Below are positions 10,996 through 21,022 of a stretch of 64,000 nt of DNA, one piece after another (position 1 is the stretch's first letter; the number at the start of each line of letters is the position of its first letter). The translations under genes and the position numbers were made by a program. The DNA lies in NCBI GenBank assembly GCA_964598565.1, contig CAZRCG010000009.1, positions 1,943 through 65,942 of the forward strand, given 5' to 3'. Under the pieces are notes generated by a model that saw nothing but the letters and a program-made list of their open reading frames with translations, ran no database searches and had not been told where the DNA came from. The DNA comes from an uncultured Bacteriovoracaceae bacterium. Lineage in GTDB: Bacteria; Bdellovibrionota; UBA2394.

Positions 10996-12933
10996 CTACT
11001 TGAAGTAAACCTTGACCCGCTGATCGGAGGTTAACTCCTCACGCACGGCTGTACCAAAACCAATAAGGTCAAATCTCTGGCGTTCATCATCGGGAAGGCC
11101 ACGAACCTCTCTAAAAACTTCTTCAAAACTTCGTCCTATAAAACGCGAATCGCCATGAGGCACCGTTCGAACGGCCGCCGTCTCGGCATCAGACTCAGGA
11201 GTAATGCCTAGCACGCCAAGGGCGCGCGAGGCAATTCGTCGAAACGAGGGCGCCGCCACACTACCACCAGACGCCCGACCCTGGGGATCATCATAAAGAA
11301 CCAACAAAACAAAGGTAGGATCATACGCCGGCACATAGCCCACGAAACTGACGATCGATGATGTCGCCGAATAGCGTTTGATCATTTTACCACCTCGACC
11401 GGGAACATCGACCAGCTTCTGAGAGGTTCCGGTCTTTCCCGCAATTTGATAACCGGGGATTGAGGCCTGAGCGCCAGTAGCTCCGCGTTCAGTCACTTGC
11501 ACCAACATATCGGTGAGCATGCGAGCCTGATCGGCCGACAGTATTTCGCGAGTTTCAAGATTTGGTTTCCACAAGATATCGCTCTTGGTAGCGGTTCCTC
11601 CAGGGCCTACAATCTTCGAGACCAAATGAGGTGTCACCAAGTAGCCCCCGTTGGCCACGGCGGCAATCGCACGAACCAATTGAATGGCCGTCACGGCGAC
11701 ACCCTGTCCAAAGGCAATATTAGATAACTCGATGGGTCTCCACGACGAGGGATCTCGCATCAAGCCCGACGCCTCACCCGGAATATCAATTCCTGATCGA
11801 GAGCCAAATCCAAATTTCGAAATCGTCGAATGAAAGTTGTTTGCGCCCAACTTTAATCCAATTTTTGCAGACGCAATATTGGACGATACTTCCAATAAAT
11901 CTTGCAGGCTTAACCAACCATATTTTTTCTGATGAAATTCTCGAATTCGATGATTCCCCACCCGAAACTGTCCATTTTCTCCAAAAATTTGTGATTGAGG
12001 CGTCATCTTCAGATGCTCGATGGCGGCTGCCGATAATATAATTTTAAAGGTGGATCCAGGCTCGTAAACATCGGCCACAGGGCGAATACGATTAAAGTCG
12101 CTCTTTTGACGAGGGCCATCGCGAGATGCCATAGCCCAAATCTCACCCGTCTTTGGGTCCATCATGATGGCCTGCGCGCTCAAAGGATCTTTTTCTTTGA
12201 TCACTCGATCGAGCTCGTCTTCCACGAGACGTTGCAAGCGAAGATCGAGCGTGGTCTCCACACGACGGGTCTCAAACCATTCTTGATCGTAATCATCAAA
12301 GAGAAGAAGTCGACCCAAGGCATCTCGAATACCGCGCACTCGCACCCGATCGGCCGATCGCAGGTGGGAGTCATAGGTTTTTTCTAGCCCTTCAAGACCC
12401 GTCCCATCCACACCTGCCGTACCAATCAGCGGCTTGGCCAAAGATCCGTGGGGATAAACACGCTTACTTTCTTTTCGAGCATAAATGCCATCTAAAGAAA
12501 GAGCATCGATGCGCTTGGCTGTTTCATCGTCGACCTCTCGCTTCAACCAGACAAAATATTTGTCTTGAGACAACAAGTTCGTCAGTTTAGCAACAGACAT
12601 TTTCAACAGGGGCGCAAGCTTCTGTGCCGTCTTTTCGGGATGCGCGATCACTCTTGGATTAGCAAAATAACTCTTTTCAATGACCGATATCGCCAACTCC
12701 CGACCGATACGATCGACAACAGGGCCCCGGCTTGTCACACGCTCAAACGACTGGCTCTGCTGACTCATTCTTTCTTTGCCTGAGGCAAGCTTCACCAACC
12801 GTGGGTCAGGCATCACCTGAAACTGAATCGCACGAACCATCACGAAGGCAAAACCGATGGTCAAAAGACTCACAACAAAAAAGAGGCGGCCCTTTGATTT
12901 GACGCCTGGCAAAGTTCTCGGGTTTTGCCTCAT
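10996..12933 (-). CDS. ftsI: Class B penicillin-binding protein FtsI/PBP3
   Basis: N-terminal TM, RGPVVDR, EPGSTFK (SxxK), SSN (SxN) and KTGT. Confidence 0.95.
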   Translation of the reverse strand: MRQNPRTLPGVKSKGRLFFVVSLLTIGFAFVMVRAIQFQVMPDPRLVKLASGKERMSQQSQSFERVTSRGPVVDRIGRELAISVIEKSYFANPRVIAHPEKTAQKLAPLLKMSVAKLTNLLSQDKYFVWLKREVDDETAKRIDALSLDGIYARKESKRVYPHGSLAKPLIGTAGVDGTGLEGLEKTYDSHLRSADRVRVRGIRDALGRLLLFDDYDQEWFETRRVETTLDLRLQRLVEDELDRVIKEKDPLSAQAIMMDPKTGEIWAMASRDGPRQKSDFNRIRPVADVYEPGSTFKIILSAAAIEHLKMTPQSQIFGENGQFRVGNHRIREFHQKKYGWLSLQDLLEVSSNIASAKIGLKLGANNFHSTISKFGFGSRSGIDIPGEASGLMRDPSSWRPIELSNIAFGQGVAVTAIQLVRAIAAVANGGYLVTPHLVSKIVGPGGTATKSDILWKPNLETREILSADQARMLTDMLVQVTERGATGAQASIPGYQIAGKTGTSQKLVDVPGRGGKMIKRYSATSSIVSFVGYVPAYDPTFVLLVLYDDPQGRASGGSVAAPSFRRIASRALGVLGITPESDAETAAVRTVPHGDSRFIGRSFEEVFREVRGLPDDERQRFDLIGFGTAVREELTSDQRVKVYFK

Positions 12934-13205
12934 GGGACAATCACCACTTGATCAGGAGACGGCTCATCATAACCACGCTCTTTCCAGAATCCTCGAAAAG
13001 AAGCGTCCGCCAGCCGTTTACTGATTTCGGCCTGCAGTCGCAGCTGCTCTTCCCTCGCCTCACGTTCAGCCGTTTTCACCTGCTCAAATTGATAAGCCAA
13101 TGATGTGATTTCCAATCGAATCACCATCATCGACGTCCAATACGCCAGCAAGGCCAAAGCTATGACCAGAAAAATGGCCCTAATACCGAAGCGACGCTTG
13201 TTCAC
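12930..13205 (-). CDS. ftsL: Cell division protein FtsL-like
   Basis: Single TM plus coiled coil; 4-bp overlap with ftsI. Confidence 0.75.
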   Translation of the reverse strand: MNKRRFGIRAIFLVIALALLAYWTSMMVIRLEITSLAYQFEQVKTAEREAREEQLRLQAEISKRLADASFRGFWKERGYDEPSPDQVVIVP

Positions 13206-13381
13206 CTGATTTCATCCCCCCAAAAGATCATTCTATCGGGGCCCCCTGATCCGGCAAAGACAAATCGAGCTCCTACACTCGCTTTGGGTGTTCCGGGGGC
13301 AGCCCCCAGTTTAAGGCACAGTACCTTGCAAAAATCTGAGAAAACGATTTTAATTTGCTGAGTCATGGTAAGTTCCCAGTC

Positions 13382-13470
13382 GAGCGCCTCGCTCTAGCCA
13401 ACACAGTGCTAGATCGATGGGGCTCAGACGTGACATAGATTTTGTATACCTGGGTTCGGTAGCTCAGTTG
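13382..13470 (+). repeat. Copy 1 of an ~89-bp direct repeat (tRNA leader plus first 18 nt of tRNA-Met)
   Basis: Matches 13500-13587 except for a loop difference (ACAGT vs AAAC) and one substitution; ends in GGTTCGGTAGCTCAGTTG. Confidence 0.9.
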
Positions 13471-13499
13471 TCTCACCGCAGGTGAGCCAAGAAACCAGA

Positions 13500-13587
13500 G
13501 AGCGCCTCGCTCTAGCCAACAAACGCTAGATCGATGGGGCTCAGACGTGACATAGATTTTGTATGCCTGGGTTCGGTAGCTCAGTTG
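13500..13587 (+). repeat. Copy 2 of the ~89-bp direct repeat, running into the intact tRNA
   Basis: Direct alignment with 13382-13470. Confidence 0.9.
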
Positions 13588-13646
13588 GCTAGAGCGAGGG
13601 ATTCATAACCCCTAGGTCGGCAGTTCGATCCTGCCCCGAACCACCA
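13570..13646 (+). tRNA. tRNA-Met(CAT), probably elongator
   Basis: Cloverleaf: GGTTCGG/CCGAACC acceptor stem, GCTC/GAGC D-stem, TTCATAA anticodon loop, GGCAG-TTCGATC-CTGCC T-arm, encoded CCA. G1-C72 is paired, so not the initiator; Ile2 is not fully excluded. Confidence 0.93.
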
Positions 13647-13722
13647 TTTATTCGGCCCGCAGGGCCGATAAAATGAACCAGTAAGGCGTTTATACGGCTT
13701 TTTATGTTTTTGGGACCCCTTC

Positions 13723-13743
13723 GTTGCCACACCGTTGCCACAC
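13723..13743 (+). repeat. Island A left arm-type repeat (GTTGCCACAC)C(GTTGCCACAC)
   Basis: 10-mer tandem with 11-bp period; recurs at 17249-17269. Confidence 0.75.
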
Positions 13744-13877
13744 ATGAAACAGAAATCTGCCTCACCACGCGGAAAAAGTGGGGTGGAAAATCCAAAAACT
13801 TGGGTCAAAAAATGGATGGATTTCGGAGTGTTTTTAAGAATGAGTCCTGATGAATTTAGGCGCTTTTAGTGCCTTCG

Positions 13878-14640
13878 TTAAACAGAGTGAACTAGCTTGA
13901 GATGTGAATGTTTTGAATAGCAATCCAAAGCCGACTGTGGATTCTGTTGTAAGCCAGCTTGAAGTTCCGGTGGAGCCTTCAAAGGCGGGCTCTCATTCTT
14001 CGGACTTAGCGAAAAAATGCGGGCTGTATGCCGTAAGTCATGAAATCGAATAGAGCGTCTCCCCCATTCAAGAAGATCTGGTTTAAACATCCGAAACACA
14101 AAGTTATCATGTCCCACTGGATTTCCGTTCGAAGCTTGAAATATTGTTTCGTCGGCCGCGATCTTTTTCTGACGAATCAGATCCTTTAGCTCTTCAAATA
14201 ATTCTCGATTGCATGGAATACGGCGATTCTCTTTGCCCTTCGTCGGGCGAAAGATGCGCTTTAGAATATCAAACTGGCGCTGAATATGAATCAGTTCGCC
14301 ATTTTCAATAATATCGCGCGGCTTTAAGCCCCAAATTTCGCCCGCTCGGGGGCCGGCATTCAGGGCCAAAAGATAAACAACATAAATCCATCGCTTCGAA
14401 CCTTCTCGAAGATATTTCTGATTTGCGAATGAAAGAAAGCCAATCGCATCTTCCTCTGTCAAACATTGAATATCATCTCTCGTTTCTTTCAGCTGTTTAA
14501 AGCGAGCAGTCGTGACTAAAAGGAATCCGCAGTTGCTTCGCAGAAAAATTGAGAACGGAAGTGATGACATTCATTTTTCGGTTCACAGTGGAAGGGCGGA
14601 TGCCCTGAGCCAGGAACTCCGACCGGATGGTCGTCAGAAA
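13878..14640 (-). pseudogene. Tyrosine integrase pseudogene (island A)
   Basis: LNAGPRAGEI, PTKGK and FHDLRHTA motifs. Lacks the 41-aa His/Tyr segment present in the island B integrase. Frameshift near 14513 separates it from a core-binding remnant (IRPSTVNRKMNVITSVLNF). 5' end absent; upstream boundary approximate. Confidence 0.85.
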
Positions 14641-15278
14641 GCCTGGATGAAATCTATTGGGACAAAGACTGCCATATTCAGGCTTTCGGGCCAATATTCG
14701 AACAGAATTCTGTGTGGTAATAAGTGGAAACGTCAGTGTGAGAGTGGTGCCAGTGCCGTCGGTGGATTGAATTTGAAGATCGCCCTCGCACTTCGCCATG
14801 ACACGCCTCGCATGCGATAGACCCAAGCCCTCGCCATGCGGAGTCCCATAAGACCCGCCCTCAGCAAGTACCTTCTGTAAAATATCGGCGCTCATTCCAG
14901 CGCCATTGTCTCCAATCTCGATCTGAATCCGATTCGTTCCCATTGGAGCAAAAGCCTTTATACCAATGGATCCAGAGCAATTCTTTCTCAGAATAGCTGA
15001 AATCGAATTGTCGATAATATTTGAGAGAACTCGAGAGAAAGTCACAGGCGATAGCGGAACAGCGACATCTGATTCCAGTGAGTTAAGTTCGGTTTTGATT
15101 TCAATTCCTGGATGATCGGCCAGTGTCGCTCGTTTTTCTTCATCCAGAGAGAGATAGCTTCCTTGAGAGCCGTGGAGCCACGGACATCTTCTGGCTTGGT
15201 TGCGCGGCCCAGACGTAAGTCTTGAGTGATTTGTTCAATGCGATCGACCACATATTTGATCATCGAATTTTTCTTCAT
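14640..15278 (-). pseudogene. Histidine kinase fragment (HATPase_c) fused to the integrase remnant
   Basis: SNIIDNS (N box), IGDNGAGM (G1), GEGLGLS (G2), GTGTTLTLTFP. The upstream frame joins only after a shift in the AGAGAGAGA run at 15146-15154. Boundaries approximate. Confidence 0.7.
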
Positions 15279-15543
15279 CTCCGAGATCTTCGAAGAGTTT
15301 CGATCTTTTCTGAACGGCCCAAATTGTTCGTAAGCGCTACATGACTGAACCGACTTTTCGTAAAAAGATCACTGCCGCAGCGAAGAAGACGATAGTGGAA
15401 CGAGTGAAGTTTCTGTCAAAAAAGGCCCGACTTCAGAAGCTACATAATTAAGAGATAGAGATTAAACAGGCCTGCTTTCTTCAAAAAGTGGGATCGATCG
15501 GGGGCTTGACCTATGTTTCTGAAATATCCATATTTTGAGCTAC

Positions 15544-15578
15544 TTGTTTGTAACAAAAAATAGTATATAATTGTTACA
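15544..15578 (+). promoter_or_regulatory. Sigma70 promoter with overlapping inverted-repeat operator for the island A TA operon
   Basis: TTGTTT (15544-49), 16 bp, TATAAT (15566-71); inverted repeat TGTAACAA (15549-56) / TTGTTACA (15571-78); ATG at 15581. Confidence 0.6.
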
Positions 15579-15580
15579 TA

Positions 15581-16198
15581 ATGACTAGCATCGAAGCACC
15601 TAAAACTATTGAAATGACTATATTAAGTCGAATATATGGCCATGGTAGGGGTTGGTGCTTTACCCCGGGCGACTTTACGGACCTTGGCTCTTCAGAGAGC
15701 ATACGCATTTCGCTTCATCGCCTCACGAAGAAAGAGACCATACGTCGCATTAGCCATGGATTTTATGATTATCCCATCCGTCACGAAAAACTGGGGATCC
15801 TTCCCCCAAGCCCTGAAGCTATCTCTGATGCCGTGGCAAGAAGAGATCATATTCGAATTCAACCTTCAGGGGCATATGTAGCAAACTTACTGGGTCTTAC
15901 AGAACAGGTGCCAGCCAAGATAACATTTATTACAGAGGGAGCTTCAAAAACGCTCGAGGTTGGTGGCTATCGGATGGTTCTCAAGAAAACAACACCGAAG
16001 AATATGGCTCTTTCTGGACGAGTGTCTGGTCATGTTGTGCAAGCTCTCAAGTATTTTGGAAAGAATCGTATATCCCCCAATCACATCTCCCGCCTTAAAC
16101 GTCGATTGAGGCGCGAGGATAAAGACATTCTCATTCGGGACGCTGCACTGACTCCTGCGTGGATCGCGAAATTAATTCGAAATGAGATTGCGAGGTAA
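15581..16198 (+). CDS. DUF6088/AbiEi-like type IV antitoxin
   Basis: N-terminal wHTH (FTPGDFTDLGSSESIRISLHRL...RRISHGFYDYP), PSGAYVANLLGLTEQVPA; directly upstream of an AbiEii gene. Confidence 0.85.
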   Translation: MTSIEAPKTIEMTILSRIYGHGRGWCFTPGDFTDLGSSESIRISLHRLTKKETIRRISHGFYDYPIRHEKLGILPPSPEAISDAVARRDHIRIQPSGAYVANLLGLTEQVPAKITFITEGASKTLEVGGYRMVLKKTTPKNMALSGRVSGHVVQALKYFGKNRISPNHISRLKRRLRREDKDILIRDAALTPAWIAKLIRNEIAR

Positions 16199-16201
16199 CT
16201 C

Positions 16202-17218
16202 GTGGACGAATTTGCCAACCTATCAGCCGACAAATTGAAGCCCTATTTTGCGATCGCTCGTGATCAAACCAAGCTTGATGACTTTATTATTGAAAAGGAT
16301 TTTTGGGTCTGTTGGATTTTGAAAAGACTTTTTGGTTTGGACGATCTCAAAGATCATCTAATATTCAAGGGGGGAACTTCTCTATCTAAGGCGTATGGGC
16401 TCATTCACCGATTTTCAGAAGATATTGACCTGTCCATCGATCGAACCTATCTCGGATTTGTTGATGAAAAAGACCCCGCGACGAAGAGTCGAGAGAAGCG
16501 AGAAAAATTATTAAAAGACTTACGCGATGCCACGCAAAAATTTGTCCGTAACGAACTATTCCAACAACTAAAGGACAATTTTTCAGATCACTTGCGTAAG
16601 GATCTTGATTGGGCTCTTACCGTAGATCCCGACGATCCTGACCAGCAAAGTCTTCTTTTTCGATACCCATCGATTGCTGCTCGAGGTGAGTTCGCCTATT
16701 TGAAGCAAGAGATCAAACTTGAATTCGGGTCTCGAGGAGAGCTGTGGCCGTCGAAAAAAAGAAAGGTAACTTCAATTCTCGCTGAAAAAATTCCCGACGC
16801 GATGAGTGAGCCTGAGATTGAAGTGACTACCCTCGACGCCGTAAGAACATTTTGGGAGAAAGCTACGATTCTACATAAACTTCATTATTGGCCAGCGGAC
16901 AAGGCTCTTCCCACTCATCACTCGCGTCACTACTACGATATCTATTGTATTCTTGGAGCAAGGGACCCGAGCGAGTTTTTCGAATCCGTCGAGCTTCTCG
17001 AAAAAGTGGCCGAACATAAGCGTCTCTTCTTTCGATCAAGTGCCGCTCGATATGAGCTTGCAAAAAGGGGAACACTTCGATTGAAGCCTTCAGCTGCCAT
17101 CGCCAATATGCTTCACGGCGATTATGAAAGTATGTCGAACATGATTTTTGGAGAACCCCCTGCTTGGAGCGATATTGTTGAACGAATTGCATCATTCGAG
17201 GAAAGTTTTAATCATTGA
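16202..17218 (+). CDS. AbiEii/AbiGii-family nucleotidyltransferase toxin
   Basis: EKDFWVCWIL, FKGGTSLSKAYGLIHRFSEDIDL, RTFWEK and SRHYYDIY motifs. Confidence 0.92.
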   Translation: MDEFANLSADKLKPYFAIARDQTKLDDFIIEKDFWVCWILKRLFGLDDLKDHLIFKGGTSLSKAYGLIHRFSEDIDLSIDRTYLGFVDEKDPATKSREKREKLLKDLRDATQKFVRNELFQQLKDNFSDHLRKDLDWALTVDPDDPDQQSLLFRYPSIAARGEFAYLKQEIKLEFGSRGELWPSKKRKVTSILAEKIPDAMSEPEIEVTTLDAVRTFWEKATILHKLHYWPADKALPTHHSRHYYDIYCILGARDPSEFFESVELLEKVAEHKRLFFRSSAARYELAKRGTLRLKPSAAIANMLHGDYESMSNMIFGEPPAWSDIVERIASFEESFNH

Positions 17219-17248
17219 AAACAGTTGGAGATTCTATTTGGCCCTCTC

Positions 17249-17269
17249 ATTGCCACACCGTTGCCACAC
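17249..17269 (+). repeat. Island A right arm-type repeat (ATTGCCACAC)C(GTTGCCACAC)
   Basis: Same motif as 13723-13743 and also followed by TCTGCCTCAC. Confidence 0.75.
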
Positions 17270-17437
17270 ATTGGCCAGAAATTAACCGAATTCTGCCTCA
17301 CTACGCAGAACTAAAACAGTCGAACCGCCTCTCGGTTGATATTGATTATATTTTGTTACCAAGCCGTATAATCACGTTTTACGAGATCAAGAGGACCATT
17401 TGTTCGAGCACCCGAAACAAGAACGAAAAACACGACA

Positions 17438-17488
17438 GAGGGATTCATAACCCCTAGGTCGGCAGTTCGATCCTGCCCCGAACCACCA
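17438..17488 (+). repeat. att copy 1: 51-bp duplicate of the tRNA-Met 3' part
   Basis: Identical to 13596-13646, from the anticodon stem through CCA. Confidence 0.95.
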
Positions 17489-17533
17489 ACTTTACGCTGT
17501 TTCCAGACGGTTTTGGCGTTTGGGGAATGCGTC

Positions 17534-17554
17534 GATGGTACACCGATGGTACAC
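17534..17554 (+). repeat. Island B left arm-type repeat (GATGGTACAC)C(GATGGTACAC)
   Basis: 11-bp period; recurs at 20805-20825. Confidence 0.75.
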
Positions 17555-17616
17555 ATTTACCCGAAATAGACAGAATCGAACTCCAAAAAATTTTCTAAAG
17601 ATTGTGAAACTGAATT

Positions 17617-18324
17617 CTAAACATAATGGATAAGTCTGAGATGAGATGATTTTGGGTCGGTGGGACTAAAGGCCATCTCCGGTGTGACAGAAAAAACACG
17701 AGCGGCTTCTTTTATTTTTTCTGCCAGTAAATGGACATAATGGATCGTGGTTTTGATGTCCTTATGTCCGGCAATTTCTTGTACCGTTTTTAAGTCGAGC
17801 CCTGCACCCGTCATGAGAGTAATGGCCGTATGCCTCAGATCATGAAATCGGATCGGCTTTCCTCCCCAGGCCATGAGGTCAGGCTTAAAAGTTCGGTAAA
17901 TGAAATTATTGTGATCCACTGGATTTCCACATCCATTTTGGAAAAACGTTTGGTTGAAACCGAGCTTGTTCACCGCAATCAGATGCCTAAGTTCTCTTAA
18001 GAGTTCTTGATTGCAGGGCACGCGTCGATTTTCTTTTCCTTTCGTCGGCCGGAAATCCTTTTGCAGAAGATCATGCTGACGTTGAATATGGATTAGTCCC
18101 TCGCCTTCAAGCAGATCTCGGGGCTTTAATCCCCAGATCTCACCGGCTCTTAAGCCGGCATTCAAAGCCAAGAGGTAAACCACATAAATCCATCGATCCG
18201 TTTGATCCTTTGCGTATTTTTGATGAGCAAAAGAAAGAAAGCGAATGGCTTCTTCACGTTGCCCTTTCAGAAAAGGATGCCTTTTCCGGAGCTGAGCCAA
18301 TGCCTCCGATAATCTCTCCGTCAT
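17617..18324 (-). CDS. Tyrosine integrase, catalytic domain only (N-terminally truncated)
   Basis: GLRAGE (R), PTKG (K), HDLRH (HxxR), AGH and TIHY (Y) all present; only 235 aa, with no arm-binding or core-binding region. Confidence 0.85.
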   Translation of the reverse strand: MTERLSEALAQLRKRHPFLKGQREEAIRFLSFAHQKYAKDQTDRWIYVVYLLALNAGLRAGEIWGLKPRDLLEGEGLIHIQRQHDLLQKDFRPTKGKENRRVPCNQELLRELRHLIAVNKLGFNQTFFQNGCGNPVDHNNFIYRTFKPDLMAWGGKPIRFHDLRHTAITLMTGAGLDLKTVQEIAGHKDIKTTIHYVHLLAEKIKEAARVFSVTPEMAFSPTDPKSSHLRLIHYV

Positions 18325-18657
18325 TAATATAGATGACAGTTTTCAGTCGAAGTTGCGTTTCTTTGACGTGTGATTTGAAAAAATAAATTCTTCTGGTCCA
18401 ACCTCTATCTTGAACTCTTTCTTCCAGTGCAGCCAAAGGGACATCAGTGCTTAAGTTTACGAGACCCAATACGAATTGACAAAAACCTTATTCTATCAGG
18501 CTTTCCCCTATTGGGGCGTGTTTTGGTTATGTGTCATGCGTTAGACTGAGAGGAGCGATGAAGAAGTCAACCAGGGCGGTTGGTTTGGTGGTCCTGGATG
18601 CTTCAGTTTTTAAAAAAATACTTGGCGACATTTCGAGTCAAAACTCACAATAAAGAT

Positions 18658-19131
18658 ATGAAAAAAATTCCTCTTTTTATGACGTTTATAGTAACCCTCG
18701 CAACTTCTCTGTTGGCACGCGAAGGAGTTCTCGAATGTGAGCCGGGGTTATCGTTAGCGAAAGGCAATGAGAGATATATTCCTGCTCTTCCAGAGAAAAA
18801 GTTTTCTGTAGAAGTAACCAATGAAACTGAAAATTTTCAGGTAGAAAAAATTTTTTCTTCTGAAGACTTTGTCGACTCACCACGGTTTGGTGGTGTCATA
18901 AGTATCCGCCTTTATGGAGATCGCGTCCTCGATGCTTCTGAAATCATGCGGATGAGTGTAACTGTAGAGCATCTTTCTCATTCTGACCTCCATTCCGCCA
19001 AGGTTTACGCGGAAGCGGTACAGGTAGCTGATTTTGGGTCCTCTCTTGGGTTTGGGTTAAGGTCGCATCATCGACAACTCTATCGAGCTGCACTCCATTG
19101 TAATTTTCAGCCGAAGCTGGTCGATGAATAA
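18658..19131 (+). CDS. Hypothetical secreted protein (island B cargo)
   Basis: Signal peptide MKKIPLFMTFIVTLATSLLA from ATG 18658; the ORF track starts at 18580. Confidence 0.65.
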   Translation: MKKIPLFMTFIVTLATSLLAREGVLECEPGLSLAKGNERYIPALPEKKFSVEVTNETENFQVEKIFSSEDFVDSPRFGGVISIRLYGDRVLDASEIMRMSVTVEHLSHSDLHSAKVYAEAVQVADFGSSLGFGLRSHHRQLYRAALHCNFQPKLVDE

Positions 19132-19225
19132 TCGACCAGCAATCAAGGTGTTTTAAAATTTTCACCTGTGGATCGCGAGTCGCTTACTTTACTTCATTGT
19201 TTCTGAAAGCGCTCCTGTGAAGCAG

Positions 19226-20059
19226 CTAAAGTTTTTTTTCGAGAGACTCAAGAAAATTGCGGAAAGCTTCCTCAAAACGAGGCGCTTCTGCGATGTTTCC
19301 TGTAGCACTGGCCCATCCTCTTTCTAAGACGGTAAAGTTCATCTGCCGCAGTTCTTCAACAAAGTTTTGGGGAATGGGGGTATCACAATGATGAAAAGTC
19401 CTTCGAATGGCTTCTTTCAAAATCGTGGGGTCGGCTTGGGGAACGAACAAAGAAAGATCCAAAATGTCCTTTGATCGAGAGTTTAGCGCCCCGCGTGACA
19501 TTAGAGCCTGAAGCTTTTCCGCAATCATGGTTTCAAGCGGATAAACTTTCCAACTTAAATCTTCGTCTCCCAGCAGAGAATGAGTTCGGGTTTGAAGCGG
19601 CTCGGGCGTAACAGGGTCTCCAAAGCCAATATCTAAATGAATAATCTGAGCGCGCTTTAAATCGAAAAGTGGCTCTCCAATACCAGCTCTGAAAATAAAG
19701 CGCATGCCGCCATATTCCCCTTGAGTTTCAAGATCCACAGTCTCCTGAAAATGAAACCATGCGGCATCATCGATGCTGACACTTGCGGCAGTCTTTACAG
19801 TTTCAATTAAGGCGTCGCCTCGAATGTGATCTGCGAGAGCATCCAAGTCAACCGTGTAGCGAGGAGACCCATAGAGTCGCATCGCAACAAATCCACCTTT
19901 AAAGATCAGCTTCTCACTCAGCGAAGAGTTATGCAGAAGTCTTGCTAAGAGTCGCTCGATCAAAAACTCTGTCATGATATGCTGAAAAGCGACCTTCCGT
20001 TTCTGTGCAATATTGGAGAGCCGCTTATGGATGGACTTGGCTTGATCTTTTAGACTCAT
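19226..20059 (-). CDS. AbiEii-family nucleotidyltransferase toxin
   Basis: ERLLARL, IFKGG, RYTVDLD, ETMIAEKLQA and SRSKDILDL motifs. Confidence 0.92.
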   Translation of the reverse strand: MSLKDQAKSIHKRLSNIAQKRKVAFQHIMTEFLIERLLARLLHNSSLSEKLIFKGGFVAMRLYGSPRYTVDLDALADHIRGDALIETVKTAASVSIDDAAWFHFQETVDLETQGEYGGMRFIFRAGIGEPLFDLKRAQIIHLDIGFGDPVTPEPLQTRTHSLLGDEDLSWKVYPLETMIAEKLQALMSRGALNSRSKDILDLSLFVPQADPTILKEAIRRTFHHCDTPIPQNFVEELRQMNFTVLERGWASATGNIAEAPRFEEAFRNFLESLEKKL

Positions 20060-20643
20060 GCTGTAATCGCCTCCCAGTGTTTCAGTAATTGAGGAAGCAG
20101 CTTTAAATTTTTAGCTGCCGACTCCAACTTAAGAGGGGTTGTCATTTTTTGGGTGAGCGCCGTTCTCACGGCTTTCAAAGCCACTTGGAGTCCTATCTTT
20201 GATGAATATCGAAGGGCTTCAATGAGGGTGCGCTCTAAATTAGTGATTCGGTAGGTTCCGTGATCCACAATCTCCTTGTGGAGAGGAGTTTGAGCTCGTA
20301 TACATCGATATACTGGTTTCCAACTTCGTTTTGAAGGCGGCACCATGACCCAAATCTGTCTTGGAGGTTCTTCCGTAAGGCGGTAATGAAACAGAGCCGT
20401 CAGTCCCCCAATAACAGATTTTTTTCCAAGAGATTTACAGGCCACTGCAAAATCCACCTCTTCCGCTTGAAGGGAAGACTCTTTAGGAAGAAAAAGCCCG
20501 TGGCCTACTTTTTGAATGTGATCATCTTCTGCAAGTCGATAAAGGGTGCGGCTCGAGACTCCAAGCTTTTCAGCATTCTTGACAGTAATGAGTTCTAGAC
20601 CCTTGAGCTTCTTAAGAAGGGTTTCAGTCGATGGAGGGCGCAT
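20056..20643 (-). CDS. AbiEi-family type IV antitoxin
   Basis: wHTH N-terminus (AEKLGVSSRTLYRL...KVGHGLF), GGLTALFHYRLT, ITNLERTLIEA; 4-bp overlap with the toxin gene. Confidence 0.9.
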   Translation of the reverse strand: MRPPSTETLLKKLKGLELITVKNAEKLGVSSRTLYRLAEDDHIQKVGHGLFLPKESSLQAEEVDFAVACKSLGKKSVIGGLTALFHYRLTEEPPRQIWVMVPPSKRSWKPVYRCIRAQTPLHKEIVDHGTYRITNLERTLIEALRYSSKIGLQVALKAVRTALTQKMTTPLKLESAAKNLKLLPQLLKHWEAITA

Positions 20644-20711
20644 AAAACATTATGTCACAAAATATCCAAAATTTCAAAAAAATGGATACTTTGTGACATA
20701 ATGTTTTATGC
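20640..20711 (-). promoter_or_regulatory. abiE promoter inside a 22-bp perfect inverted repeat (putative AbiEi operator)
   Basis: GCATAAAACATTATGTCACAAA (20640-61) / TTTGTGACATAATGTTTTATGC (20690-711). On the minus strand, TTGAAA (20677-72), 17 bp, CATAAT (20654-49), with the ATG 5 nt later. Confidence 0.75.
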
Positions 20712-20804
20712 ACCAAAACAAATGAATTTCATAGGTTTTGATGTCTAAAATATATGAGGTGACCCCGCGTCCATAGACGACCTTGCGCCGGTGATTTTCC
20801 TGAG

Positions 20805-20825
20805 CGTGGTACACCGATGGTACAC
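20805..20825 (+). repeat. Island B right arm-type repeat (CGTGGTACAC)C(GATGGTACAC)
   Basis: Same motif as 17534-17554; both copies are followed by CCCGAAAT. Confidence 0.75.
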
Positions 20826-20942
20826 AAGATCCCGAAATTCACCGAATTTCCCCGTATCAACCAGAAGTAAAAACATAAGCTAACTCCTCAGAATAATTTA
20901 GTTTTTTGTTTAATTTCAACGACTTAGCATTTTATGTCGAAC

Positions 20943-21022
20943 GGATTCATAACCCCTAGGTCGGCAGTTCGATCCTGCCCCGAACCACCATTTATTCGGC
21001 CCGCAGGGCCGATAAAATGAAC
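20943..21022 (+). repeat. att copy 2: tRNA-Met 3' part plus 32 bp of downstream flank
   Basis: 80 bp identical to 13599-13678. Confidence 0.95.

Follow-up and report, generated by a model that had tools for sequence, protein, structure and literature searches.

Few loci of a genome are as conserved or as heavily used as its tRNA genes, which are also known landing sites of large mobile elements. Islands and prophages with tyrosine integrases target them, and the eukaryotic Dada transposons are analogous in idea. In the integron attC site and the attP site of CTX phage, an imperfect inverted repeat on one strand folds into a duplex that imitates a double-stranded target site. Here, we describe a small element that shares features with both groups. 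It lies in the leader of the tRNA-Met gene in a 64,000-nucleotide (nt) stretch of DNA from an uncultured Bacteriovoracaceae bacterium (the window, i.e., the whole stretch that was analyzed), where 1.7 tandem units of a ~118-nt non-coding module each carry a perfect 16-nt antisense copy of part of the adjoining tRNA. In our reading, to which we give a probability of roughly 0.45, this anti-tRNA sequence forms the inverted arm within an insertion or duplication module that is gene-less, lineage-specific and located at tRNA arms.

Integrative elements enter a tRNA gene, restore it by a copy that they carry, leave an outer partial direct repeat and stack in tandem, and the module appears to share all of these properties. 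Unlike integrative elements, it is only ~95–130 nt long, holds neither an integrase nor any other gene, and is found at 5′ (D-loop) as well as 3′ targets. Its inverted copy of a tRNA arm and its conserved hairpin are likewise without counterpart in the att sites of integrative elements. The likeness to attC and CTX attP is one of design only. These sites share with the module a target-mimicking fold with unpaired or branched extras, and both arms remain as an inverted repeat after integration, whereas the target of the module is a tRNA arm as opposed to attI or dif and its side branch is a full covarying hairpin.

The antisense sequence CCTCGCTCTAGCCAAC occurs twice on the plus strand, at 13387–13402 and 13505–13520, and both copies are the exact reverse complement of 13584–13599 in tRNA-Met, which comprises the D-loop, the 3′ strand of the D-stem and the start of the anticodon stem (tRNA nt 15–30). 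This complementarity had been pointed out in the original prediction, which was made from the sequence alone, and it is borne out: the 16-mer is matched three times in the window, where shuffled sequences lead one to expect 0.02 matches. What had been missed is that both antisense copies lie within a longer direct repeat that recurs after 117–118 nt, in which 13382–13403 equals 13500–13521 and 13408–13473 is similar to 13525–13590. When each of the 44 tRNA genes in the genome is compared with the 300 nt upstream of it, the longest antisense match is typically 5–8 nt, the exceptions being tRNA-Met (16 nt), tRNA-Pro(CGG) (14 nt) and tRNA-Ser(GCT) (12 nt). In the sense direction, the match upstream of tRNA-Met is 18 nt long, against a background of 5–10 nt across the tRNAs of the genome. 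The antisense match of tRNA-Ser(GCT) lies ~55 nt upstream of the gene at position 119242 of contig C8 and covers part of the Ser D-loop (GGTTTAAGCCTT region); it has neither H1, the core hairpin described below, nor a sense copy, and its length is borderline for chance.

All parts of the module are on the plus strand. In the complete, gene-proximal unit, a copy of tRNA nt 1–18 (GGTTCGGTAGCTCAGTTG, 13453–13470) ends in the D-loop and is followed by H1 (T-CTCACC-GCA-GGTGAG-CC, 13471–13488, with CTCACC-GCA-GGTGAG at 13472–13486) and by a purine/A-rich linker (AAGAAACCAGA, 13489–13499) that can be aligned in all units. A second hairpin, H2 (GAGCG-CCT-CGCTC, 13500–13512), is formed as the sense GAGCG at 13500–13504 pairs within the start of the antisense arm, CCT-CGCTC. 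After the antisense arm (13505–13520) come a diverged sense copy of tRNA nt 19–32 (GCTAGAtCGAtGGG, 13525–13538), the leader adjoining the intact gene (13539–13569), itself a sequence repeat, and the gene-proximal copy of the tRNA 5′ part, which runs into the intact elongator tRNA-Met(CAT) at 13570–13646 (called by ARAGORN; 63.4 bits with the Rfam tRNA model). The upstream unit is truncated. It starts with GAGCG at 13382, the sense 3′ strand of the D-stem, right after the post-promoter leader, and the tRNA 5′ copy, H1 and the linker are all missing from it. Its H2 (13382–13394) and antisense arm (13387–13402) are followed by a third, sense-like copy (GCTAGATCGATGGG, 13408–13421; tRNA nt 19–32 with 2 changes) and by a leader copy (13422–13452) that is similar to the native leader of the orthologue in a congener. 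Truncated first units are also seen at two loci in relatives (L072 in genome G006 and L078 in G009). The sense-like copy at 13408–13421 pairs with the antisense arm to form a hairpin termed H3, which in the fold of the leader alone involves 13382–13402. The local hairpins that had been proposed, GAGCG-CCT-CGCTC and TCTAGC/GCTAGA, are both present at both copies, with the GCTAGA partner at 13408–13413 and 13525–13530.

The same layout is found before other tRNA genes in the family, which was represented by 14 Bacteriovoracaceae genomes (G000–G013, with G000 the source genome and G001 its congener). BLAST of the region against the relatives found a matching layout with two units before tRNA-Met in another genus (G012), and before other tRNAs it recovered the middle part of the unit. 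Two covariance models were used, namely R1, built from eight units, and R2, built from H1 and the linker alone. R1 has 59 matches in 13/14 family genomes, including a second copy in the source genome before tRNA-Pro(CGG), and nearly every match lies 12–70 nt upstream of a tRNA on the same strand. About 15 kinds of tRNA gene are concerned: Val(GAC, TAC), Arg(TCT, TCG, ACG), Met, an Ile2-like CAT tRNA, Ile(GAT), Pro(CGG, GGG, TGG), Asp, His, Thr, Lys(CTT, TTT) and Phe, with Leu(CAA) added later. The tRNA-Met unit itself, at 13460–13522 of the window (C9:15402–15464), scores 76.7 bits with R1 (E = 5e-18) and 32.8 bits with R2, and its H1 is the best R2 match in the source genome. It contains every part that defines the module: the cognate tRNA copy, H1, the linker, the sense piece, the antisense arm and the intact tRNA. 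The second 5′ module of the source genome, before tRNA-Pro(CGG), lies at C6:110978–111090 and has the H1 sequence CCCACC-GAA-GGTGGG; just upstream of it is another short fragment of a tRNA 5′ end.

From the outside inwards, a unit is made of a leader and a copy of the tRNA 5′ part, then H1 and the purine-rich linker in place of the remainder of the D-loop, a short sense piece, a turn of 2–7 nt, a full antisense arm, a leader copy and the intact gene. Units start with the first 16–19 nt of the adjoining tRNA, acceptor strand included, and end with the antisense D-arm. The arms are cognate. The sense copy matches its own tRNA exactly over a median of 16 nt and other tRNAs over a mean of 7 nt; for the antisense arm, the values are a median of 13 nt and 7 nt, with ties where isoacceptors share a D-arm. 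The antisense arm accordingly follows the local tRNA, reading TAGCC at Met, TAACC at Val and Ile, and TATCCAGC at Arg, and at all loci with a detected tRNA the intact gene is restored by the inner-side copy.

The spread of the modules is both patchy and lineage-restricted. At the tRNA-Met locus, only 2 of the 14 family genomes have a module (the source genome and G012); the congener has the promoter, leader and tRNA alone, and G008 is module-free there as well. Between 0 and 30 copies are found per genome, with none by R1 in the congener and at least 19 in G012, and their cores are ~65% identical. Some copies stand in tandem arrays, such as three identical 105-nt units before Arg(TCT) in G009, and near-identical arrays consist of two 95-nt units before Phe and of three Asp-type units of 131 nt. 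In the same genome, G009, a conserved element of ~85 nt precedes module arrays at two different tRNA loci (L065:520–600 and L093), with the sequence GTGTGG.TC.AAT.CCACTCGAGAAGCGCAG.GACGCAGCCGCC.AAGC...GGCCTTTAG.GACACTCCCG.

Outside the family, R1 has no match in 287 genomes from other families of the phylum, and a pattern of the arms alone, with any insert of 25–55 nt, is found in none of 387 other genomes of the phylum and in 8/14 family genomes, with zero control matches. In 185,579 species genomes (one each), an exact pattern matches family members only, namely Bacteriovoracaceae metagenome-assembled genomes and one record that is labeled Bradymonadales and is identical to G009. A metagenome scan for GAGCG..CGCTCTAGCCAAC, a poorly chosen pattern, returned 74 loci, nearly all of which are either coding DNA or ordinary tRNA genes read from the opposite strand. 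True modules are present at only two of them (L169, JAEEGI010000382.1, and L191, JAEEGL017434407.1). Both lie before tRNA-Val(TAC) and consist of tRNA nt 1–18, a different and longer hairpin, a linker, GAGCGCC followed by a turn and an antisense arm, and a sense-like piece. Because these two lie outside the family, the design is not unique to Bacteriovoracaceae, though the hairpin type is. Full-text literature searching found no description of this layout; the family of tRNA-arm modules is apparently undescribed and, in its present form, apparently specific to one bacterial family.

Mirror forms of the module are found at tRNA 3′ ends. In the source genome, one such form occupies the spacer between tRNA-Thr(TGT) and tRNA-Gly(TCC) (C2:376494–376633), in the order trailer, antisense T-arm, turn, sense 5′ strand of the T-stem, two overlapping hairpins, copy of the tRNA-Thr 3′ end and trailer copy. 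Its H1-type hairpin, CCGACC-GAA-GGTCGG, is on the strand opposite to the tRNA. R2 detects six further 3′ forms, one of them a triple array, after Leu, Pro(GGG) and Trp genes, and in 6/6 the tRNA is on the opposite strand, downstream of H1. The 5′ and 3′ forms are thus related by a two-fold rotation of the DNA, and the polarity of the core therefore depends on the geometry of the gene end, irrespective of which way the gene is transcribed. At one locus (L026), the antisense arm itself holds a second H1 in inverted orientation, nested head-to-head, as if the antisense arm had itself served as a target.

The core hairpin is a real structure. Among 35 different H1 sequences, pairing holds in 98.1% of cells, compared with 30–41% in slid controls, and all 6 pairs carry changes on both sides, in 52 cells altogether. 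None of 500 shuffles reached these values, whether for the share paired, the cells changed on both sides or the covariation score, and in a separate count 259/270 pairs are Watson–Crick. Also conserved in the family are the apex CC-GAA-GG, the T that precedes the stem and the purine-rich linker, and the loop is of the GNA type. Mismatches of the G·T kind number 6 and those of the A·C kind 3, a count that does not tell an RNA strand from DNA. Hairpins with a CC-GAA/TTC-GG apex number only 7 in the source genome, and 2 of these adjoin tRNAs. Around H1, two further pairings, P1 (GTTG/CAAC) and H2 (GAGC/GCTC), are intact in 100% of cells in 8 units, although they are to be expected anyway because the arms derive from the same tRNA. 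H1-type hairpins are also seen in the congener without any duplication, within the T-loop of a tRNA-Leu(TAA)-like sequence that is not called by ARAGORN (L090:340–450) and within a non-tRNA inverted repeat, GCGACTC/GAGTCGC (L091:460–530). As for a possible promoter made up of H1 and the linker, the arrangement TTGTCN, 17 nt, TAAATA fits G012, G008 and G010, but not G009 or the window.

An insertion or duplication module acting at the DNA level is favored because the copies are patchy, stand in tandem arrays and have mirror forms, because their arms are cognate and because H1 covaries; these features, like the anatomy of the units, their recurrence and their lineage-restricted spread, are observed directly. 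From these features, we infer that the module is mobile, and a mode of entry can be proposed. The module would enter the loop of a hairpin-forming tRNA arm, which would be the D-arm on the sense strand and the T-arm or variable arm on the other. The displaced gene end would be left outside while a fresh copy is carried or made inside, such that the essential tRNA survives. A one-unit circle, running from H1 through the leader to tRNA nt 1–18, would on insertion after nt 18 give exactly the observed order, and tandem arrays could arise from repeated entry or from slippage between the duplicated ends. As a single strand, a unit would fold such that its sense pieces pair with its antisense arm, giving a duplex that imitates the tRNA arm and from which H1 branches off. 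At the locus in the window, tRNA-Met would now be transcribed with a leader of ~215 nt whose antisense segments are largely masked by local hairpins, and any effect on tRNA maturation would be a side effect or at most a modulation. Taken further, these steps describe a new gene-less element of ~100–130 nt whose folded strand mimics the hairpin arm of a tRNA gene, which enters the loop of that arm through a host or other enzyme and rebuilds the gene end, and whose masked antisense arm could later be co-opted to tune pre-tRNA folding. In this full form, the proposal is tentative and, taken as a whole, rather unlikely.

Several points weigh against a DNA-level module. Contigs of four metagenome runs, one of them from another study, confirm the window sequence and show the filled arrangement only, with no joints, empty site or copy-number variant among them. 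No enzyme could be linked to the module: the Pfam family Y1_Tnp is present in 10/14 family genomes, none of its members being in the source genome, and genes for RVT_1 reverse transcriptases are present in 5/14 only. How a module acquires arms that fit a new tRNA is left unexplained by the model. At three loci, including tRNA-Met, the outermost unit starts at H2 and lacks H1, for which a later deletion must be assumed. Between the sister species G010 and G013, our reading of the units gives 0 changes in 36 H1 stem bases, while the loops, the linkers and the antisense arms have all diverged. Resident copies may accordingly be under selection, which would point to a role at the level of the host, although the constancy of the stem could alternatively come from self-correction of palindromes. 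Finally, one argument in favor of the module has its limits. H1 and the linker are more alike between different tRNAs of one genome (identity 0.654) than between genera at the same tRNA (0.608, p = 0.004), where identity is no higher than between genera at different tRNAs (0.596), but this test uses non-independent pairs and is dominated by G012.

An alternative possibility is that the module is a cis-acting RNA element. The antisense arm would then pair either with the sense pieces of the module, leaving the tRNA free, or with the nascent D-arm, blocking the cloverleaf and impairing RNase P, and H1 would be a sensor or protein-binding part. A putative native promoter (TTGCAA at 13326–13331, 17 nt, TTTAAT at 13349–13354; plus strand) precedes the whole module; its motif, CTTGCAAAA...TTTTAAT, is also found upstream of the module-free orthologue in the congener and in G008 and G012, and in G012 it stands directly before the outer copy. 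Co-transcription of the module with tRNA-Met is likely, because the only recognizable promoter is upstream of both copies and is kept in the congener. A promoter scan of the plus strand listed no promoter-like site in 13100–13900, which also agrees with an RNA element, and this strict scan omitted 13326–13354 because its −10 has no A at position 2. No RNA runs containing the stretch were found. When 13358–13646 is folded in silico as RNA, the minimum-energy structure has −115.5 kcal/mol (z = −4.6) and pairs 13505–13520 with the tRNA D-arm over 16 base pairs (bp). With the cloverleaf enforced and the local hairpins of the leader in place, the energy is −111.8 kcal/mol, leaving a gap of 3.7 kcal/mol that could be reversed by tRNA tertiary structure and co-transcriptional order. 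The leader alone folds at −82.0 kcal/mol, with both antisense copies in local hairpins with flanking sense pieces, and the 16-bp duplex of antisense arm and tRNA has −31.4 kcal/mol by itself. By these calculated energies, the two mutually exclusive folds of the original prediction are thermodynamically plausible, misfold and cloverleaf are truly competitive, and the idea of an RNA switch is physically sound. The strong covariation of H1, its conservation between sister species and the constant presence of the cognate tRNA next to the antisense arm point in the same direction. Attenuators, engineered RNase P riboswitches and the pairing of a 5′ leader with a 3′ end, which is reported to inhibit RNase P (PMC9433436), resemble the module in that alternative pairing of the leader could decide processing.

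Other features of the family are difficult to reconcile with such a role. With respect to the direction in which the tRNA is transcribed, H1 and the linker are reverse-complemented in the 3′ forms, and the RNA would thus be a different one; presence is patchy even at a single-copy essential tRNA; and identical tandem arrays and truncated units occur. Unlike masked-antisense leaders, the module belongs to no Rfam family: searches of 12500–14500 at E ≤ 1 and of six related loci at the gathering threshold returned tRNA only (RF00005 in the former), and its distribution and mirror forms are unlike those of a vertically kept regulator. Complementarity between leader and tRNA does recur in relatives, whose arms are cognate, but the antisense arms of sister species have uncompensated mismatches to an invariant tRNA in orthologous pairs, e.g., at Arg-TCG in G010 and G013. 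A cis-acting RNA element is therefore possible but doubtful, and a switch dedicated to tRNA-Met supply, as had been suggested, is not supported, given that the module occurs at many kinds of tRNA and is absent from the Met locus in 12/14 genomes, that its own sense arms mask the antisense, and that there are arrays and 3′ forms with H1 on the other strand. An effect on RNA folding could still be a secondary consequence of the inserted module. It is quite improbable that the module works in trans or as a decoy, be it as a D-arm mimic, in RNA or DNA, that binds a tRNA-arm factor (a modification enzyme, a tRNA-cleaving toxin or an integrase) or as an antisense RNA on unfolded tRNA. A single unit can by itself fold into a duplex D-arm copy with an H1 branch, and the modules adjoin tRNA genes, which are integration hot spots, with two islands at the 3′ end of tRNA-Met. 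However, no unit has its own promoter or terminator, every copy is specific to its cognate tRNA and lies in cis to it, older copies show decay of the arm, and crossover by the integrases of the two downstream islands takes place outside the D-loop, from the anticodon arm onwards in the 3′ direction. Nothing supports the earlier suggestion that copy 1 acts in trans, and extrusion of a cruciform is unlikely with arms 63–181 nt apart. Very improbable, lastly, is a local replication accident, i.e., a template switch at the quasi-palindrome of the D-arm or a small tandem inversion duplication, with neither element nor function. The zig-zag of GAGCG (sense), antisense 30 to 15 and GCTAGAtCGAtGGG (sense) does resemble a strand-switch product, but the same conserved H1 and linker are found at >45 loci in 13 genomes, H1 is not templated from the local tRNA, and the sense-plus-antisense layout never occurs without H1 (0/14 family genomes). 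A one-off template-switch inversion is likewise contradicted by the recurrence of the layout in relatives with antisense arms that fit the local tRNA.

Known families of short elements were also compared with the module. Sense copies of tRNA 3′ ends can lie downstream of tRNA genes, within tRNA operons. Repeats of this kind, the tRNA-linked repeats (TLRs) of Escherichia coli, are mentioned in one report (PMC8144298). They resemble the module as partial tRNA repeats that flank tRNA genes and are sometimes in tandem, but they contain neither an antisense arm nor a conserved hairpin insert; an E. coli-type repeat was rejected for the module, where a copy of the 5′ part lies upstream together with an antisense arm and an inserted hairpin. 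Hairpins of the repetitive extragenic palindrome (REP)/bacterial interspersed mosaic element (BIME) type with REP-associated tyrosine transposases (RAYTs), and those derived from the insertion sequences (IS) IS200/IS605, are also short, non-coding and lineage-specific, with a conserved base before the stem and presumably single-stranded handling. Unlike REP/BIME, the module has three copies in the source genome as opposed to hundreds of dispersed ones, and it is tied to tRNA arms and to a duplication and inversion of the target. A REP/RAYT system was rejected, as Y1_Tnp is absent from the source genome and the paralogues in G012 are flanked by GGGGTCAGAG, not by H1. The Y1_Tnp genes have these GGGGTCAGAG ends of their own, unrelated to H1, and R2 has no match on the contigs of the G012 paralogues. 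The latter are five Y1-transposase-like proteins of ~191–199 amino acids (L116–L120; MPR.HRIRQYEFPYSVTTRCNN...) between GGGGTCAGAG inverted ends, and they have the appearance of an IS-like family that is active and has no relation to the tRNA modules. A miniature inverted-repeat transposable element (MITE) was excluded as well, since the inverted arms are copies of the local tRNA and not element-specific ends, the duplication covers 18 to >54 nt and includes the leader, the copies are few with ~65% core identity, and no parent IS was found. Integrase attL/attR repeats do not apply, as the copies of tRNA nt 1–18 are 117 nt apart with no open reading frame between them, and an origin by reverse transcription of mature tRNA was set aside because the outer copies extend into leader or trailer DNA and have no CCA. 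BLAST of one unit against phage and plasmid collections gave no match.

The surroundings of tRNA-Met also hold classical integrations. Two consecutive islands follow the gene at 13647–20994, with exact copies of 51–52 nt of its 3′ part, from the anticodon arm, at 17438–17488 and 20943–20994, and these islands represent classical integrase-type integration, separate from the module upstream. Just inside the first island, at 13722–13743, CGTTGCCACAC occurs twice in tandem, and the integrase of the island may use these copies as arm-type binding sites. By elimination, the gene at 13570–13646 is the only elongator tRNA-Met gene of the source genome, because its other CAT tRNAs are an initiator, an initiator fragment and an Ile2-like tRNA, as we take them to be from general knowledge of identity elements. 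A partial copy of the initiator tRNA lies at the start of contig C4 (315–388), where the last ~53 nt, from the anticodon arm to the 3′ end, match the initiator on contig C13; it is possibly another integration repeat.

With >60 copies, two covariance models and clear filled and empty orthologous sites, the module family offers material that can be tested. If the RNA reading were true, the leader of tRNA-Met would be a natural case of masked-antisense control of tRNA maturation, which to our knowledge has so far been seen in engineered systems only. If the DNA-level reading is true, a tiny module without any protein of its own recognizes tRNA arms by their structure and copies part of its target both forwards and inverted, while the gene survives. 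Such a module would be an added route of genome remodeling and a possible origin of tRNA-linked repeats and tRNA introns.

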